64,000 nucleotides of DNA, taken from NCBI GenBank assembly GCA_045837725.1, contig JBEWZL010000308.1, positions 1 to 64,000 of the forward strand, written 5' to 3'. The stretch is from Vermamoeba vermiformis (lineage: Eukaryota). The notes beneath the pieces are model-generated. The model was given only the letters and a program-made list of their open reading frames with translations. It did no database searches and was not told where the DNA came from. Shown here piece by piece: positions 11,021 to 62,649 of the stretch (position 1 is its first letter; each line of letters starts with the position of its first letter). The translations under genes were made by a program, and so were the position numbers.

Positions 11021-12520
11021 TTATACGACTTCATCCTCGGGGTTAAATGCGAGATTAGTCTTAATATCTACATCTTGATAGCGCTGATAATCGGCGATTA
11101 ATGTTTCTAAGTTGTCAAACGCTTCTTTAAACTCCATTTGATCCATTCCTTCGCCGGTGTACCACATTAAAAAAGCTCTTCGTTTGTACATCGCGTTAAA
11201 TCTCTGCGAAGTGAACTTTAAATTATCAATTATAGCACTAGTATTCATTAGAGCTGTTCCAGACATGTTGAGATTGATCGGCGGTCTCGAACACAACGAC
11301 GTTTTGATGTTATCAGGGATCCATTCTATAAATGACGCTGAATGCTTGCTTTGCATTTGTGCAATCTGATCGTCTATTTCTCCGCTCGGAATATCTCCGC
11401 GGAAGATACAACTCGCTGCCAAGTGCTTGCCTGATCCATTTTTTGGCAGATTCTCGTGTAGCAGTAAGTTCTCGGGGCTAAACATTTGCGTAGTAATTTC
11501 CTTAAATGTCGTAATATCGGGCTTATTCTCTAGAATGTTGGCTGAGAGTGGAGATCTGGCAGGCACGTAAAAGTGAACGCGAGGGAACGGCGCCAGATTA
11601 AACGACAACTTGCGTAAATCTGATCGAGATTGCGTTCTAAATCGCATGCCACTAGTCACATCGCTTATAATATTCGCAAATAGCGTGTTTACGTGATGCG
11701 TCTGCGGATCCACTACGTTGTATTTCCAGGCAGTTGAATAAGCTGCATCATCGTCTAAATAGACCACCGAGTCTGCATGTTCGATCAAATAGTGCATAGT
11801 TAACACTTGATTATAGGGTGCCACGACTGCTTCTCCACCACGATTAGATCCAGTTGCCGAGTAAGTCCAAAGCATTCGATCTGGATAATCTTCGCGTAGT
11901 TTCATTAGGATTAATGAGCCTAGACCTGCTCCAGTGCCTCCAGCAATACCATGTACGAGTTGAAATCCATGAAGACAATCTGATCGTTCAACTTCGGCTC
12001 GGATTCGGTCCATGAGCAAATCCTCTGCCAATTCTGCGCCTTCTGTGTAGTGTCCTTTGCCCCAATTATTGTGAGCACCGTCAGTGCCTTTAATAAAGTT
12101 ATCTTCGCGATAGTAATGCTGTCTGTTCGCCTTGATGGAATCGAGTTCCGTTGGTTCTACCAAAAAAGAGTCAAATCTATGACACGCAAAAATTACCAGC
12201 GAGATTTGATAAAAATTTTATAAATTACGTTGCGTTATAGAAATTATGCAATACTATTTTAACGTCTTCCGTTAGATCAGGGTTTTTAAACTGAAATAAC
12301 TTTTTAACTTACCTAAATCCACGAGTAATGCACGAGGCACGTATTTATTTTCTTGCTCTTCGTGGAAAAATACACCAATATTTTCATTTAACGAAGCTGG
12401 AGCGTCGTCTTTAAGGACACCATTGGCATCCAAACAATGCTCGTTCTGTAATAGAGCCCAAAATTTGTCTCCAATACGATTTCCCGTTTGACCAAATTGC
12501 AAGTGAATTATATCGCCCAT
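11021..12520 (-). CDS. Divergent beta-tubulin, two exons (intron 12157-12312)
   Basis: GQTGNRIG, YVPRALLVDLEP (across the intron), NNWGKGHYTEGAEL, DLRKL, PFPRVHF, FIEWIPDNIK and RRAFLMWYTGEGMD. Confidence 0.92.
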
Positions 12521-52959: not shown

Positions 52960-55446
52960 ATGGCATATCTCTTTGCAAAAAATCAGGAATTTATTCAATT
53001 TGCATCAGGTAATTATGGCAGCTCTAATGTCAACTGCAGGCAATTAAAATTAATTCTTAAGCAGTGCCTTCTCGACAATTCTCTACAACTCGTGAGGGGT
53101 AGGCAATGTACACATTCCTTATCTAATTTTAATGCTTTTACAATAGTGTAAAGAAAACTAGCCTACCTGCAGGCCATGCTTCGGAATTTTTGGATCGGAT
53201 CGGATCTCCCGTCGACGATGCAGACAAACTGGATTTTTCTGGTTTGGTAAGCAGCTGTATGTTTTGATTTTGGTTTGCATCATATATTCATTAAATTTAG
53301 GGCTTCGCGTGTTGGGTGATGCTAGATCTCTATTCGATGCAAATGAAATAGGGTCTAAAGTAGTTGAAGCAGCGTTCCTTACAGCGTTCCAAAAATTTAG
53401 ACCAGAAACGAAACGTAAGCGCTATGAATTTATTTGCGTACTTTATAAGCTAACGATTACAATTTAGCACGCGAGTGGTTGCACACGGATGTAGCGGACT
53501 GGTTAGTTCAGACAAGGGGCTTTCCAAATGGTCATCCTTTTGTGCAAGGCATTCGTGACAATCCTTTACTTTCTGCTTCTATGGTTCCATTGGCCGCCAC
53601 AAATCCGCAAATATTGGCTGAAAATGGCGTAGATCCGAATTTAACGGAGTTTTTAGCCAACGAGGTTACTAGAATTGCTAGAGGTACGCCTGAATTATAC
53701 TAAGCTTATAAATATTAATCGACTTATTTAGAATTGGCTTTTACAAACACAACTTGCCGTCTTTCGAAGCGTGACATTATGCGAAGTATTGCAAAGCATA
53801 AAGCAAGGGTCAAGGAAGTTATAAAGTTATCAAAAGACAAGGACTATCAGAAGAAGCTATTTCCATTTATTGTGAATCCGCTGCCATTGGCTACTTCTGA
53901 TCCAACACGCTGGCAAACGTTTCATTTTACGGATTTAATGAGCAACTCAAAATTGAATAACCTTGCCGGCAGTATTGCAAATTCTGTCAGTGGTGATGCA
54001 CAAAAACGAACACTTACAAGTATCATCCAAAGTAAGTAAACTAAACGACCAAATGCCTATTCTAACTATTTGCAGTGAGTGGAGTGGGTAAAACTCATGT
54101 GTCTATAGTAATGGCAAAGAAGTATGGTGGCTTAGTTATTCGAAATGTTCAAAATGTCCACAACAAAATATTTGCTTTGGCTAAAATGTTTGTGGAAACC
54201 AACAAGTATTTGCTTCTGGGTGCTGACAGTGACAGAAATGTCGAAAATTACCATGCAGAATCAGCATTTTTAGAATATGCCCAACGTACACTTATGCTCA
54301 TTCCCCTGACATTCTTGCAATTTGTGGATTATTATGCAGGTAAGTAGATCAGTTCTTGGGAATGCTGTTACTCATCTATCTGTTGAGCAGCTACAGAAGA
54401 GCATACCAACACAGCTGATTTTCGAGAAGAAATTGTTCGAGTAACCCTTTCTGGTGCAAATAATCTCATTCTCCAAATGTATGAGAAGAATTTGAACCTT
54501 GTTGCAAAAGACAGAAAATTCAACCAGTTCTTTGAAGAGATGCTTCAAGTAGCAAAAAAACGAGGAATCACAATGATAGTTTATGATGAAATTACTAAAT
54601 GGGAAAATGCACTTTTGGGCAGCTTCATTCATGATAAACGAAAGGATATGACAGAAGCTCAGCTTGTGAGTAATCATTTGACTGCAAATATGACCAACAA
54701 GTTTGATAGCTAGAGAGATTGAGAGAAGAGCAAAGAAACACTGAGACAAGTACTCGACGAACTTCTTTGCTCTATGTACAAATCCTTGCTATGGAAAGAA
54801 TTGCAAGGGCAGAAAATCCCATTGCTGTAAGTGATTGATTGTCATAAGCTAAACTTATTTTGTTATTTAGCAAGTTATTGTCTCCTCAAAATACTCTTCT
54901 CCTGCCCTTGGTGATGATAGCTATTCAAGACACAGGCTTGCAATGACAATGGAGCCTTATGACCAAAGCCCTGCTGAGTTGTTAAAGCGCTTTGAGTGTG
55001 AGATGAAAAAAACCTATGGTGCCAAGATTAGTTATCTTTTTACAAAACACAAACCAGCACTTTGTCGTCTTGCAAGCAGACCAAGTTACTTGTGGTCATT
55101 TTTTGAAAAGGTTAGTAATCAGTTTTTTTCTTGTTCTTACCAATTCAACAGATGCCACCACCACAAATAAAAGACTTTAAGCAGTATGTGGATAAATGGG
55201 TGTATGAAGTTGAAAAAGCAGCATTTCTCCAAGCTAAACAGTAGGCTGATAAAGCAAGAAGACTTGGAGAGATATATGAAGTCCTGGTATGTTGAATCCC
55301 TCTCACAATATAAGCTAAAAATACCAGGATTTAGCCAAAGTAATGGTTCAAGTTGCCTTTGGAATTTCAAGCAATACTCAATTGAAAGAATAAGTAGTGT
55401 AGCAGCAACAATTTGTAACCAACTTGTTATTAAACAGAGTTTTTAG
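52960..55446 (+). pseudogene. Disrupted SAM-like + P-loop NTPase gene (possibly Crinkler/RHS-like)
   Basis: PREWLHTDVADWL (SAM-like), Walker A SGVGKT and Walker B MIVYDE. There is a frameshift near 54708 and an in-frame TAG at 55242-55244 within an otherwise spliceable exon. Confidence 0.6.
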
Positions 55447-55503
55447 TACTTAATCTACCCATTTCTGCAAGATAATAGTGCTAGATGAATAATATGATTA
55501 CAA

Positions 55504-56811
55504 TTATACTTTGTACACAACTTGACCGTGAAGTAACGGCGCTTGTTCTGAAGTTTGAATGATCTGAAAAACAAAATAGAAGTTAATCACTGAAATGCCG
55601 TGTTTAAATTAATACTTAATTAAATAATTATTTTAAGGGTTTCGTTATATTATTTTGCTATAAAGACGGTCTAACTAGAAATTCAAAAGATTCGACTTTT
55701 TCGGATCCGAAGTTTTGTACTAGCAATTTGTGCAGCGATTTAAAATATTATATATACGTACTCTGTATTCCCGAGTGCGAGGACCATCATTCGCAGCCAC
55801 ACCAGCGGCAACACAAACACCGCAGCAACAAACCAAAATCAAAATGATCGGCAGAGCCACGCAAACCAAGACGAGAATAATAACGACGACTACGAATACT
55901 GCAATAGTCATACCCAAAATTTTAGTTCCGTCTTCGGCTGCTTGCGCTATTGAAAAAGGTCAGATCCAAATCCGGGATTTGAAAATGTACTTACAAAAGC
56001 TGCAATCGTTGCCAGACCATCTATAAATAGTGTCATCGCATGTACAAGTCAATGAGGTAATATTGCAACCGCCTTGGCCGGAGCACAAAGAAGGACAAAA
56101 TGCTAAAGTAAAACAAGCGATCAGATCGGGTATTAGCAATGCAAAACGTCTAATTAAGTAAGAGCAAATAGAATACATATCATAAGATAAAATATAACGT
56201 ACTTGCACAGCTTCCAGGGCAATATTGGATCGCGTAAGTGTAATTTACGTTGTCAGCGTAGATTCCGATGTAGTAATCGCCTTTTGCTTCGTAACGACCA
56301 ATAGTATAGGTAGTACGATATCCAAAACCCGATTTGACGGTAAAGTCGGAGCTATTGTATGCCACGAAGAACTGGATTCAAAGATATTACCGTTAATAAA
56401 AATTAGTGATAAAATGTATGGAGATATTTGACGTGCTAAATAAGCACATTTAATTAAAGTAATTAATATAGGGTAGTATTAATATAATATTAATCCCGGG
56501 ATTGAGTTCTAATTTTCGGGCGATTGTTGCAAATCTGAACTTTCAATCAACTCTTCAATTCAGTCATATTTAATTATTATAATTACCTTGGCTGCATAAT
56601 CACTATCCACGGGAGTCATACGAATTAATTGGATTTGATATGAAGTGCTGCTGGTAGAATTTAGATGGATCTTGTAGGTGGTCATGTTAACGCCATTATT
56701 CGACTCCACACTGCCATATTCAAGTGTATTAGGTGGCAGTAATATTTGTCCTGCTGAAAGCGCGACTAAAATAAATAATGAAAGTGCGCTGACTACAGAT
56801 CGGATGGCCAT
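55504..56811 (-). CDS. Type I membrane protein with EGF-like domain
   Basis: Signal peptide MAIRSVVSALSLFILVALSAG, EGF-like CPSLCSGQGGCNITSLTCTCDDTIYRWSGNDCS, long TM segment, juxtamembrane CCCGVC and a cytosolic tail with EQAPLL (dileucine-type motif). Confidence 0.8.
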
Positions 56812-57150
56812 GGTTAGATTTGGCTTTTGTTGGCGTACAGTTAAAGCCTAATATGACCTATGGTATGCAGTTTTGTATGTTAAAAATATTCGTGTTTCTA
56901 CACTAAACAGGGTTTCATTTTTTCGGGCTTTAGAAAACTTGAAAAACCACGCTGTGAATCCGATCGTGAACTGCGCAAATGGGGATACGAACAGCTGGTA
57001 TTAACATTATGAGAGTAGCAGCTGAGAAAGCGCAGAATATTCGGAAATTTCAGTTCCCGCTCTTTTTGAAGATAAATAAGAATTATTTTTTGTCAGATTT
57101 GCAAGTTGAAAGTGTGCAGCACCACGAGAGGCTTATTCTATATTTTTTAG

Positions 57151-60100
57151 ATGTCCGAACCAACAAATAATACCGATAAAACCTCAAAAGAGGTAACGCA
57201 TCATGAATTTTCTTCACATCTAATACTTACGTGTCCTTTTGATCAGGATAACAAAACCAAGCCTAATTTTCGTCGAAAAAAATCAAATTTGAATAATGGT
57301 TGGCCTGACGTTCAAATATTCGACCTGGTATTGCCTCCCAAGCAAGTAGATCTGAGTCAATTTGAAGAGTATTTAACGAGTAAGTTGATAAATGTATTAT
57401 CCTTATACGATGTATCATATGGTATTTCGGTCATAATTACGAATTAATTAAACTTGATTATTTATTTATTAATTATTTTTCACTCCGCAGTCAAGTGCAA
57501 TGACGGCGCTGAAATATTGATCCCAAAATTAGTAGCAACATCAACTTCATTATGGATGCGACGACTATTGTCAAGTAAGTCTTGGATAACCCCAGATGCC
57601 GACCCAAACTAAATTTTAAGTTTTGTTATTTTTGCTTGGTCTCAGCTTACCATCGGAAATTTAGGCGATTTTAAGGAAAAACAAACGTTGTCCGTTGAAT
57701 TTAAAGAATTCTCCGGCCTGATCTTGGAAGAAATCCTTCGTTTTTGTATTCAAGGTACGCAGCTCCAGATCCGCTCAATTTAATATTCAAAACTAATCTT
57801 AGATCATTAGATTATATTGTTAATAAGCCGAATTACGATGAAGACGTTGAGGGTAAAAAGCAACAGCCTCGTGTCGTATTTCAATTTTACATTCATCCTA
57901 GCGTCGTCATGGAAATGTTAATGGTACGAAAATATATTACTACATTAGGCAATAATTATAATCATAGTTACTAATTAAATTTTAAGGCCGCTGATTTCTT
58001 GCAAATTCCATCACTGCTCGAATTATCTTCGCTAATGTTAGCTCATTACATTGACTGTAAGTCCCATTAAAAATATCATATAGTAGAGTAATACTAATCG
58101 TATTTATCGATATATAGATGTTCCATCGTTTGCCGGAATTGCACCGGATCTTATTCTCGGAGTTTTCGCACGTGTCAACCCGATTAAGTTGTGCGGTCTA
58201 GAAGACAGACCTGAATACAAAGCGTTGAAATTAGGTACGATATTATATAAGACCGGGACCCTTAATATACAGATCATATTAATATTGTTATTATTGTTAT
58301 AGACACCGCGCCTATTTGGTACAAACATTGCATCAAAAAAGATTACAAAGCGTTAGGCCCTGTTTTTAGCTGGGACAGAAATCCGATACTGAAGCAATAT
58401 TTGGATTCACTATACCCCGAAAAACAGACTAAGACAACCCATATATATAACTACGATCAACATCATCAAGTCGTGGAAGATCTGCATTCAGTTGATTGGA
58501 AGAGAATGTACCTCGAGCGAGACCTTAATTTGCGATTGTTTTTCTTGGAATACTCCAATGAAAAGCACGCAAAGATTAATGGCGAAAATAACGCGAATAG
58601 TAATAATAATAACGTGATGACTTCGGATCCAAACCCGGATGTGGGACCTGAAGATGATGACGACGAAAAAGTTGATATTTTAGATCATTTAGATGATGTC
58701 GCGCCATATATAAGGTAAAGAATCGATATGAAAACCGTTCAGTGAAACTAACGAAATTTCATTTTTTTTGTAGTTACCTCAAAGTCACGATGTCAAACTT
58801 CAATCTCGCTCCGTTCATCGAACACTTGACTAAGCTGCAATTATCAAAGTTCCAGTTGACTAAAGAGCACGCGCAAGTCATTTCCAAGTTGAACAAAGTC
58901 ACGGATCTACTTTTGACTGAAATGGTAAAAATATTCATATTCTTATATTAAGTCCTAATATCGATTATATGTAGAATATTAGAGACACTACAAACGTTGC
59001 AACTATTTTGTCATCGTTAACGGTATGTAAATACGAGAAAAAGTATACCGAAGTATATACTAAGAAGTATTCATTTTTAGAACTTGAACGTCCTTGATTT
59101 GAGCGATAACGAGATCGATGATAACGGAATTGTTCCGCTTTGTCGAGTATTGGCAACAAATAACTCGTTATCGCGGTTAAGTATTGCGTACAATAAGCTT
59201 GGCGGACCATCGATGGGACTGCTGTTTGCATCACTTAAGAAGCACGTCAATATCGAGTTATTAGATATTTCGCATAATAATATCTTTGCAATGGGTAGGT
59301 CATATTATATATACCTTAGATACCGTATTCTGATTATTCCTAATGCTTGTAACAGACGTCGAAGAGGACCGTTTCCGCGACTTGAAAAACAACATGACTT
59401 TGAAGCACTTAATTCTCGATGAAAATCCATTGGGTGTGGATGTAGTTCATAAGTACGTATTATTATATAATATTATATTACTAACGGTTCTTATATGTTC
59501 ATGCACATTTTTCACGGTTACTTTTATTTTCGCAAGGCTAACTTTCATTTCCTTTTTAGGGCATTTTTCAACTTCAAACTTGCCCGTCATTCACCAACAG
59601 CGCTCAACGCACTGTTCGCCAACATTCCAAATCAGCTCTTGTCGCTGTCACTTCGCAGCACAGATCTGATCCCCGAGCACATGAACACGCTCGCTACTCA
59701 TTGGACTACGAACACGTTGATGCAACTTGAATTCTTTTCGATATCGAATAATGAAGTGCGCGATGAAGGTGCTCAAGCATTGCGCGATGTTTTGCAAGTC
59801 AATCGCAGCATCAAAATGTAAGTCAGATCCAACGGAGAAAATTAGCTCTACTATTACTTTCTATCATTATATACTATCAAGTAGTTAGATGTATGACATA
59901 TCTTACGGTATTTTTGTCACAGCTTGGATCTGACCAGATGTGATCTGAAACAACAAGGCGCGGAAGCACTAGCAGTCTGTTTGCAATTGAACGATTGTTT
60001 AGAGCACTTGATACTAGACCGCAATAAGATACATAGCACTGGTACTATTAAGCTAGTTGAGGCTATTAAGAAGAACCCTAACCGTGGCTTGAAATCATTG

Positions 60101-60223
60101 CACTTCAAATTGACCGAGACTAACAACGACGTGACAGTGCGATTAGAAGAAGAGTTGGAAGCGATAGGCATTATTGCTTATACTGATAGTACCCCTGATA
60201 CCACTTGGCGATACAAGCGTTAG
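57151..60223 (+). CDS. Elongin-C/Skp1-like POZ + BC-box/Elongin-A-like segment + RI-type LRR protein
   Basis: VKCNDGAEILI, GDFKEKQTLSVEFKEFSGLILEEILRF, FYIHPSVVMEMLM|AADFLQIPSLLELSSLMLAHYID|YVPSFAGIAPDLI, IWYKHC and WKRMYLER. LRRs include LDLSDNEIDDNG, LSIAYNKLG and LILDRNKIHSTG. Confidence 0.8.
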
Positions 60224-60282
60224 AAAATTAATAGGTTATTTTACATAAACGTGTATTTACAAGTGTTGGTATGATTCGTTTT

Positions 60283-62401
60283 TTAGACTTGCGGATCTGT
60301 TGCCGTAACTTTTTTGACATCTTCGTTTTCGGATGGTGTTGAATCATTCGAGTTTGATCGATAAGGCGTGCACCATAGTAATGTAATGTAGAGCCCACTG
60401 TATAATAGAAGAGCGTACGTTATTCCAATAAGGCTGGTAATAATGATTCCTGCGGCGTTACATCCGACTCCAAGCCCGACCGCTGCAATTGGATCTGCCA
60501 AACAGTTGTCAATCTCTGATAATTAAGACATCGTATATAATGTATATCATTCAGTTCCTACTTACTCCATGACATTTTAAACGAGATGCTCTTGCAGATC
60601 GAGCCTATGAACATGAAAGAAAGGAACCAATGCTGGAACGGAAATAAACTTCCTAATAGCAGTAAATATAATTCTGGGTCTAATCGCTGTATTGCGAATA
60701 GAACGCGTCGCAGGAAACCAATGGTTGACTCCATCCGGAAATTGTCAAATTCAGTTCGCTTTTATCGATAAGATGCTCTGTGGTTATGTTACCATACAAA
60801 AAAATAGACCAATTCAATTGATTTGCTAACAAAAAACGGTTGTGGTATGACCTACAAAATTGAGTGTGTACCACACAATCGTTAGAGGTCATACGGGAGA
60901 TTTTGGCATCAGTTTTAGTAATTCGATTTGCAAACGACAAAATTTGACTGCAATTCGGTAAGAAATAGTTGTGACAACTCTACTTGAATTTTACACAAAC
61001 AGCTTGATCAGATCGTCGTTGGTTACGTTTAATGCAGGGTCAAGCTCTTGTACGTAATAAATGGTACAGGTTATTTATCATTTCCTGACTAATTAAAAGG
61101 TAGATCCAAATTTACTAGCATTGTGAAAAATCGATGTCATTTAACATCGGAAATAGAAGACAGTATAATTACATCGTTACTATTTATAAGCACTCACTCA
61201 GTCTACTCGCAGTTTGTGCTGTTCTTTCGCCAACAAATCACCGAACATTTCCGCAACCGTCAAATGACCCCATAAGAGCGCTGGACCTGTCATAATGCCA
61301 AGTGAAACCGATGACACTAATAAGAATTATATTAATAATAAAATAAATATAACAATAACAAAATTTCTTGGAGTTCGATCAAACGAAAGAAATTATACGA
61401 TTTAAATTTAATTTTTTGTACGGATGCACCAGGAAATTGTTATTTTTAATAGACTTACCAATCGTACAAAGAGCAAGTGCAGCAAGTGCACTAATCGTAG
61501 CCTTCTTATAATTCGATCGAGCCATAGGACCAAGGGATTGCCAGATCTTTCGAACAGTTGTCGTATTAAATATGCTGGTCCATTTGTTCTTATGATCTTG
61601 ATTCACTAATGCATATGCAGCTATTAATGGCGCAAAAAATAGCACTAAAAATGCGGCCAAAAATGGCGGAGCAGCGAGGACCGTAAATGTCAAGAAGTTT
61701 GAGTTTTGGAATAAAGCTGCTGGGATAGATATAAATAAAACAAATAGCGCTGGTGCGATGAGGATCCATATGCCATCTTTTAGTAGTGTTGATACTCGTT
61801 CGCTTTTGTAAGCTGGCAAGATGTGCATGTTGATAGCGGATGGACTTAAAATTTTGTCTCTATAAGCATTAATAGCAAAGCCTAAGTAAAAATGATATTA
61901 TTTATGAGGTTTGTATTATATTAAACAATTTGCATATCAAATTAAGGTAGATCTAGCGGAGATCGAATTCGGATGCATCTGTTTTTCATTTATGTGACTT
62001 ACCGTTCAATATAAGATAGGCTGCAATATCTACAAACGGAATAAACATAGTGAGTGATAGGGCCACGCTCCAAGACCAAAATCTCTTAAGCGGAAATTTT
62101 GTTGGTGTGACTCCGATCCCTAAGTTCATTAGATTAGACTTGAATAATTTTTAAAAATTATTTAAAAATATATTTGCTTACGTATGAATGGTACTCTTCC
62201 CCAAGTGTTGAACAGATTTCTGACACTGTATGGATTTGTTTTTTTGTATTCCGTGTACGAGCCGATATATCGTTGCTGGATTGTATTAACACTAGATTTC
62301 TTCGCCAAAATCAACGAAAATATTGGCTTATTATTTGCTATCTTTTTGGCGGCTACTCGAACTGCACCAAGGCGCAGGCCAGAAGAAAATATTTTCAACA
62401 T
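60283..62401 (-). CDS. Multi-pass membrane protein with a mitochondrial-presequence-like N-terminus (possibly DUF4013-like)
   Basis: Basic, acid-free N-terminus MLKIFSSGLRLGAVRVAAKK. Several TM segments, including FIPFVDIAAYLILN|GFAINAYR...LPAYK...LLKDGIWILI. Confidence 0.6.
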
Positions 62402-62649
62402 CTGTTGTTAATGAATGAAATTGTTAGATCTCTAGTGCAAAAATATGATCATATTTGTATTGGATAATTATTCTTATAATTTTAAGATGACGTGTAAAGT
62501 TTTATCGAAAGGATTCAGTGAGCTCAAAGGTGAACTCCTTGGCACGTCACCTTCGATAATTACCTTATGATTTTAATGTAAATAGCAGTTGTGCTTATGC
62601 TTCTTTACATTTGAATTAATTCAGTAATTATTTGTTCGCAAGAAAAAGG

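Follow-up and report, generated by a model that had tools for sequence, protein, structure and literature searches.

Can the adaptor and the substrate receptor of an Elongin-type ubiquitin ligase be one and the same protein? The question is raised by a gene on contig JBEWZL010000308.1 of the Vermamoeba vermiformis assembly GCA_045837725.1, of which positions 1 to 64,000 of the forward strand (the window) were analyzed. An earlier reading of the letters alone (the original prediction) had proposed that an Elongin-C-like domain is followed, in the same chain, by a segment resembling Elongin A and DRC5/TCTE1 and by leucine-rich repeats (LRRs), and this architecture was borne out by profile comparisons and by intronless full-length records. 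The protein is a member of a genuine family, which is conserved and has apparently not been described before. Its succession of an Elongin-C-type POZ domain, a BC-box, a cullin-box-like helix, an Elongin-A/DRC5-type helical module, and RI-type LRRs is taken here, with moderate confidence, to form a single-chain cullin adaptor and substrate receptor, and the best reading of the overall design is a BTB-BACK design made from Elongin parts.

The host genome, which was searched as 43.3 Mb in 309 contigs, is that of an intron-rich eukaryote. The spliced frame of the window gene, on the plus strand, comprised 2,130 nucleotides (709 codons) with no internal stops. Twelve of the 13 GT-AG introns were present as joints in contigs of the public runs X1, X2, and X4, which were taken as RNA runs by guess, and the thirteenth (59295-59355) was inferred, backed by an alignment with the relative P0001 that is free of gaps beyond residue 13. 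No single contig of X1, X2, or X4 spanned the whole gene, and the raw RNA run X9 yielded 14 reads at the gene, mostly partial and too few for use. P0001, which was recovered by a database search with exon 8, is intronless and 710 residues long, and 577 of the 709 residues of the window protein (81%) are identical to it. The POZ domain (94/105 identical) and the module that follows it (65/70) were the best-conserved parts, compared with the LRRs (282/345) and the N-terminus (36/55). There are three further full-length members in the P0001 cluster, one of which has 730 residues encoded on a contig of 2,323 bases, which is too short for the introns. Because such intronless full-length records exist, the POZ exons and the LRR exons belong to one chain, in which the POZ domain, helical module, and LRRs are joined; separation of these exons in cDNA, which the original prediction had named as fatal to it, is not what the records show.

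A chimeric gene model is ruled out by the same intronless records. A pseudogene is ruled out by the open frame and by a second copy on contig C11 (L012, G000:C11:62000-70000), an 8-kb segment with 97% DNA identity to positions 54645-62637 of the window, in which the gene is intact and encodes 707 of the 709 residues identically. The C11 copy is probably an uncollapsed allele. The motifs quoted in the original prediction are all encoded where it placed them, on the plus strand, and are joined in frame in the 709-residue protein. Its interval, 57491 to 58530, does contain the motifs, but the POZ domain begins upstream of it, at Tyr56 (57370), and the gene extends from 57151 to 60223. Its motif GDFKEK needs a similar amendment: D-F-K-E is coded, but the G is intronic and the spliced protein has S-D-F-K-E.

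Among 1.84 billion cluster representatives searched, 47 family matches were recovered (E value up to 0.001). The best stretch spanned the seam between the POZ domain and the following helix in 39 of them, and a near-complete POZ domain and module were present in 27, 23 of which had a Pfam LRR match; the counts of 39 and 27 describe the set rather than test it independently, as the profiles were built mostly from the same matches. In 28 of 31 members the POZ core was nearer to Elongin C than to Skp1. Free Skp1, free Elongin C, and an Elongin-A-like protein are all encoded in the host genome, and the POZ-core profile scored 66.5 bits against the host's own Elongin C, 44.6 bits against its Skp1, and below 0 against its Elongin-A-like protein. 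When the N-terminal part of P0001 was searched against the PDB, Elongin C, matched from end to end, made up the top 19 of the 23 sequences listed (E values, 0.0095 to 0.058) and Skp1 had an E value of 0.61. With the family profiles, Elongin C was matched at an E value of ∼2e-16 (columns 37 to 139) and, with the N-terminal-only profile, at 3e-12. The strand before the last POZ helix is of the Elongin C type and aligns to Elongin C without gaps.

An AlphaFold2 model of the protein had a mean predicted local distance difference test (pLDDT) score of 82 and scores of >90 across most of the POZ domain and module. It superposed on Elongin C (1vcb_B) with a Z score of 11.2 and a root mean square deviation of 2.2 over 88 residues; the identity of 25% was the highest among the structural matches, and Foldseek ranks 1 to 4 were Elongin C chains, judged by entry title and length. 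A single-sequence fold of P0001 (pLDDT, 38) was unusable.

Immediately beyond the POZ core the likeness passes to Elongin A and to DRC5/TCTE1. In one profile Elongin C ended at column 139 and DRC5/TCTE1 began at column 140; in the N-terminal-only profile Elongin C ended, and human Elongin A (residues 576 to 669) began, at column 131. That stretch of human Elongin A matched the family profile with an E value of 3e-4. The DRC5/TCTE1 match, which starts at TCTE1 residue 77 and includes LRRs, had an independent E value of 3e-17, with an L-x3-C-x3-I helix, a W-x-x-x-C helix, and a W-K-R-M helix all in register. Pfam Elongin_A (PF06881) was matched by 6 of 40 sequences, one of them above the cut-off, and by neither the window exons nor P0001. 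A phase-1 intron directly after the first post-POZ helix is common to the window gene, a paralogue on contig C84, and the host's own Elongin-A-like gene. The last of these genes (L016, G000:C260, 1345-2233) is compact; its BC-box lies ∼14 codons from the apparent start, and it therefore has no long N-terminal region.

The first post-POZ helix, residues 161 to 177, was modeled with a pLDDT of ∼95 and superposes on its counterpart in BTB and Skp1 chains. In the structural literature, the BC-box helix fills the place of helix A5 of the BTB core. Elongin C has no core helix A5, whereas Skp1 and BTB domains have one within their own chain (PMC1257465), and the BC-box of Elongin A is a loop and a helix that bind Elongin C (PMC10716050). 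Residues 163 to 172 of the window protein fit the BC-box consensus, (S,T,P)LxxX(C,S,A)xxx-hydrophobic (PMC3355856). A BC-box docked within its own chain, as in the original prediction, agrees with this fit and with the A5 position of the helix in the model; as the BC-box is the same structural element as the A5 that Skp1 and BTB proteins carry in cis, docking of helix 161-177 in the A5/BC-box groove is to be expected, and is less of a surprise than had been suggested. Across the family the BC-box fit counts in part against this interpretation, as the strict consensus was found in 12 of 39 members, and in 25 of 39 when the first position was ignored.

The nearest competitor to an Elongin origin is that the POZ domain derives from Skp1, or represents an old third lineage beside Skp1 and Elongin C, and retains its own A5, with an F-box-like helix and LRRs behind it. 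The protein would then be a single-chain Skp1-FBXL that binds Cul1, and no fusion of Elongin C would have occurred. Several observations weigh on that side. The Elongin C and Skp1 comparison drew on one host sequence of each together with human and yeast PDB chains. Structural comparison did not separate the candidates, as Z scores were 11 to 12 alike for Elongin C, Skp1, and BTB chains, and the top Z score was that of a plant Skp1. Helix 161-177 aligns equally well with Skp1, and thus does not discriminate; it has Skp1-like Cys and Ala residues, and once it was included Skp1 (best E value, 4e-13) tied with Elongin C. Column 68, in the strand before the helix, is Pro in 18 of 32 members, as in Skp1, and there were weak F-box matches in 3 of 40 sequences. 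A phase-0 intron before A-A-x-F-L is shared with the host's Skp1 gene and absent from its Elongin C gene. Another intron, of phase 1 and two codons before F-x-E, fits Elongin C from the right and Skp1 from the left, and the intron evidence on the origin of the POZ domain is mixed.

Against a Skp1 origin stand the bias of the POZ core toward Elongin C and the form of the strand before its last helix, described above, and the P-x-P-N motif through which Skp1 binds Cul1 (PMC1257465) was incomplete: the second Pro was present in 18 of 32 members, and the first Pro and the Asn were not among the common residues. The sequence after the POZ domain argues in the same direction. Of the 72 columns of the post-POZ profile, 71 aligned with the host's Elongin-A-like protein (33.3 bits) and 17 with its Skp1 (7.3 bits), and when the first helix was removed the Elongin-A-like match persisted (22.6 bits) and Skp1 was not matched at all. 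Segment by segment, the Elongin-A-like protein gave a better score than the Skp1 tail in 33 of 38 cases. The Skp1-like C-terminal extension that the original prediction had offered as a second interpretation thus fails past the first helix, where the Elongin A and DRC5 likeness continues. Taken together, these results make a Skp1-derived protein unlikely.

If the domain is of the Elongin C type, does it still recruit a cullin? In Elongin C, the residues M105 and F109 stand out as the strongest hotspots for Cul2 and form the pocket that the N-terminal tail of Cul2 enters (PMC5462531). They align with M154 and F158 of the window protein, which also carries F89-x-E91. The F109 place was F or Y in 38 of 39 members and the aromatic-x-acidic loop was kept in 29 of 30, a conservation of this F-x-E-type loop and aromatic place among members that are only ∼30% identical. 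A Cul2-box pattern (hydrophobic-P-x-x-hydrophobic-x-x-x-hydrophobic, 8 to 23 residues after the BC-box) was found in 25 of 38 members. Less favorable are the M105 place, which is Met in only 11 of 39 members (it is His in the fern protein P0029 and its close relative P0019), and the Cul2-box of the window protein itself, which has Ala186 at the Pro place and Pro one residue later, although the spacing fits.

The host genome has five full cullin genes. One of them, L025, scored best against Cul1 and next against Cul5 and Cul2, and its product has a Leu/Pro start like the Cul2 tail. A divergent gene resembling a cullin N-terminus was also seen on the minus strand of L026 (G000:C260:540500-543500; Pfam Cullin positions 1 to 118, below the cut-off), and C3, C75, and C306 gave partial cullin matches as well. 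Cul3 is the other candidate partner, because the ZSWIM8 ligase contains Elongin C bound to Cul3 (PMC13083262), a pairing also reported for yeast, and because plants lack Cul2 and Cul5 of the animal type (PMC2785787). Complex prediction of the POZ domain and module with the N-terminal 165 residues of L029, a Cul1/2/5-type cullin of a relative, scored 0.29 and 0.01 where the mark was 0.34, in runs made without an alignment or folded controls, and is uninformative about binding.

These features suggest the following mechanism. In the model, the helix after the POZ domain packs as A5 and would occupy, from within the chain, the site at which free Elongin C receives a separate BC-box partner. The POZ face, with its F-x-E loop and M154/F158 pocket, and the cullin-box-like helix would bind the first repeat of a cullin, which may be L025 or Cul3. 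By analogy with other receptors, the LRRs are presumed to be the substrate-binding arm. The protein would then be a one-piece adaptor and receptor of a cullin-RING ubiquitin ligase (CRL) that does not draw on free Elongin C. The cullin recruitment implied by the original prediction is inferred from conserved residues, and its suggestion that free Elongin C is bypassed would apply to this protein alone, as free Elongin C is still encoded in the genome.

The presence of an Elongin-C-like domain does not necessarily imply a ligase, however. Pull-downs of Toxoplasma SPARKEL contained no ligase parts (PMC11321763), and it is conceivable, if somewhat less probable than a Skp1 origin, that the POZ domain of the family only folds and shields the BC-box helix of a DRC5-like or SPARKEL-like structural LRR protein. 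Such a scaffold would accommodate the variable M105 place and the homology of all post-POZ sequence to DRC5/TCTE1, a subunit of the nexin-dynein regulatory complex. Against it stand the exposed aromatic-x-acidic loop and the aromatic at the F109 place, both kept at the family's level of divergence. An axonemal role in the host organism is also unlikely; exon-wise searches of the genome found no DRC4/GAS match over the cut-off and no IFT46 match, a result that does not prove absence.

It is highly improbable that the protein is an ordinary BTB-BACK(-like)-LRR Cul3 adaptor with a chance likeness to Elongin: Pfam BTB was matched by 14 of 40 sequences (E value up to 0.1) and above the cut-off by 2 of 45, the aromatic-x-Glu loop is also a Cul3-binding motif of BTB proteins, and the Atlas leads, all below the 0.9 lead level, were BTB/BACK clusters at 0.82 to 0.85, but BACK (PF07707), which the original prediction had accepted as the mark of such a protein, was absent from the Pfam families matched by 40 aligned sequences, 25 of the 26 being listed (BACK was not the target of any profile-profile search), Skp1_POZ and Elongin_A were above the cut-off in 3 and 1 of the 45 sequences scanned, an intron is shared with the Elongin-A-like gene, and Kelch BTBs fell some six orders of magnitude short of Elongin C and Skp1 (Kelch-type BTB chains had E values of 3e-6 to 4e-5 with the N-terminal profile that matched Elongin C at 3e-12).

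An organism name was attached to 8 of the 20 matches that were looked up. The architecture search that the original prediction had recommended thus found Cavostelium, Stenamoeba, Pyxidicula, Pelomyxa, and Ceratiomyxa (two records), which we take to be Amoebozoa from several subgroups, together with the fern Adiantum nelumboides and Nonionella, presumably a foraminiferan, that is, six amoebozoan, one fern, and one foraminiferan record. Flowering plants were not represented among the named family matches. The fern protein (P0029) and P0019 both nest within the family, which, going by record names, appears to be present in amoebozoans and at least one fern. The paralogue on C84 (L011, G000:C84, minus strand, 6287-3720) has the same layout of POZ domain, Elongin-A-like segment, and LRRs in an open frame of ∼735 to 755 codons; one of its exons matched Pfam Elongin_A directly (E value, 7.6e-4), and a long Ser-rich insert interrupts its POZ loop. 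P0021 and P0025 have additional domains ahead of the POZ domain (WD40 and a periplasmic-binding receptor domain, respectively) and may be fused gene models. Word-seeded protein searches recovered only the P0001 cluster, and one that was limited to lengths of 890 to 2540 was empty and is uninformative about the family. No description of a POZ domain, BC-box module, and LRR architecture was found in the literature searched, which mostly excluded subscription papers, and the passages of papers on Dictyostelium and trypanosome cullins (PMC9108976 and PMC12816148) mention no such protein.

The layout of the gene and protein is given in the table below. Within the helical module the order is cullin-box-like helix, two more helices, W-x-x-H-C helix, variable insert, and W-K-R-M-Y helix. 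Eight clear LRR motifs lie between residues 422 and 646, and Pfam LRR_6 was matched by exon 11 with an E value of 1e-08 and by P0001 with one of 3.8e-14. Pfam scans of single exons of the window gene gave no Skp1_POZ, BTB, or Elongin_A match, and the significant matches of full-length P0001 were to LRR families alone. P0001 carries a precomputed Pfam accession, PF27087, that did not appear in the scan with an older local Pfam copy and that may already name part of the protein.

Features of the window gene and its product (positions are those of the window)
Feature	Position	Strand	Basis
Whole gene, 14 exons, 709 aa	57151..60223	+	2,130-nt spliced frame, contig joints, P0001 alignment
Exons 1-7	57151-57192, 57247-57379, 57491-57574, 57665-57754, 57811-57923, 57987-58056, 58118-58234	+	
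Exons 8-14	58303-58714, 58774-58924, 58975-59022, 59081-59294, 59356-59452, 59560-59817, 59923-60223	+	
Short N-terminal motif, V-E-I-aromatic/aliphatic in the family, aa 35-39	57307..57321	+	Conserved column
Complete Elongin-C-like POZ core, aa 56-160, five exons	57370..58004	+	Profiles, model superposition
Helix at the place of BTB-core helix A5, aa 161-177, BC-box consensus S163-L164-x3-S168-x3-L172	58005..58055	+	
Elongin-A-superfamily/DRC5-type helical module, aa 178-297	58056..58544	+	Profile matches, common intron
Asn/Asp-rich low-complexity linker, ~aa 305-340	58566..58673	+	Sequence inspection
RI-type leucine-rich repeats, ~aa 345-690	58686..60163	+	Pfam LRR_6, motif count, RI-type PDB matches

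The central column of the N-terminal motif was Ile in 18 of 26 aligned members. The motif had a pLDDT of ∼50 and did not form a strand when modeled as a monomer; it may act as a swapped strand, as in BTB domains, or take the place of Elongin B. A basic stretch often precedes it in the family. Elsewhere in the window, positions 11021 to 12217 of the minus strand hold an open frame of 398 residues, which we take, by eye, to resemble a divergent beta-tubulin.

How such a chain arose bears on the history of the Elongin system. In a tree of 29 family POZ cores with the host's Elongin C and Skp1, the last two joined (95/91) and most of the family was not resolved; the tree is unrooted with unsettled bootstrap values and cannot distinguish fusion from fission. 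It is possible, but we consider it doubtful, that the family preserves the undivided state of the Elongin C and BC-box pair, as an old gene with an Elongin-C-like core, A5 within the chain, an intron of the Skp1 type, and one of the Elongin A type. Fission of that gene would have given rise to free Elongin C (without A5), Elongin A, and DRC5, and DRC5/TCTE1 would accordingly have an unrecognized BC-box that binds Elongin C. If this were the case, the axonemal, fertility-related DRC5/TCTE1 would be linked to the Elongin and cullin machinery. No paper on a BC-box in DRC5 was found in the literature searched, and TCTE1 and DRC5 are absent from the main text of a human E3 compendium (PMC13061254).

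Among known systems, the family can be compared with the Elongin C and Elongin A heterodimer. Elongin acts as CRL5-Elongin A in animals, and Cul3-Elc1-Ela1 has been reported in budding yeast. As in the heterodimer, an Elongin-C-like POZ domain is followed by a BC-box helix and helices of the Elongin A superfamily, and an intron is common with the host's own Elongin-A-like gene. In contrast to the heterodimer, the family has one chain rather than two, LRRs follow, and free Elongin C and an Elongin-A-like gene coexist with it. The POZ domain also occupies the place of the N-terminal TFIIS-like domain and Pol II latch that precede the BC-box in Elongin A (PMC10716050). Elongin C and Skp1 have been described as little more than the adaptor itself, with receptors recruited in trans (PMC1257465); unlike free Elongin C, the window chain continues into the A5-placed helix and 530 more residues, and unlike Skp1, the family lacks the F-box-binding C-terminal tail, as the likeness ends after 17 columns.

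Homology to DRC5/TCTE1 begins at the BC-box-like helix, takes in the W-x-x-x-C and W-K-R-M helices, and continues into the RI-type LRRs, whereas DRC5 chains match from column 140 or later and no POZ domain was seen in them. In the DRC5/TCTE1 PDB chains 9fqr_Qx, 8j07_5, 8glv_Ez, and 8th8_F, the L-x3-C-x3-I helix is in register with the family and with the BC-box of Elongin A. The fusion also shows the N-terminus of DRC5/TCTE1 to be of the Elongin A type with a BC-box pattern, and predicts an interaction with Elongin C. SPARKEL (Toxoplasma TGGT1_291010) is likewise a protist protein with an Elongin-C-like POZ domain within a longer chain, but it is 23 kDa, has its POZ domain at the C-terminus, and binds a kinase; no ligase parts were found with it, and no BC-box module or LRRs are mentioned in the passages concerned (PMC11321763).

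The principle of a single-chain adaptor and receptor is already known. From the BTB-BACK and BTB-3-box adaptors of CRL3 (KLHL, KBTBD, and SPOP) the family differs in having an Elongin-C-like POZ domain with no BACK detected, no long N-terminal dimerization helix in its model, and LRRs instead of kelch or MATH domains as receptor. With the VHL-box LRR receptors of CRL2 (LRR1 and the PRAME family) and the Skp1-FBXL pairs of SCF it shares BC-box- or F-box-like helices followed by LRRs, but those receptors take a free, shared adaptor in trans; the family would resemble an Elongin C/VHL-box-LRR pair made into a single chain. It has been proposed that Elongin-based ligases arose recently, in animals and fungi (PMC2785787). 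The occurrence, in amoebozoans and a fern, of an Elongin-C-type domain hard-wired to its BC-box module and to LRRs would indicate that the Elongin system came to the BTB-BACK design by a different route, and the family would offer a natural test case for the origin of the split between adaptor and receptor.

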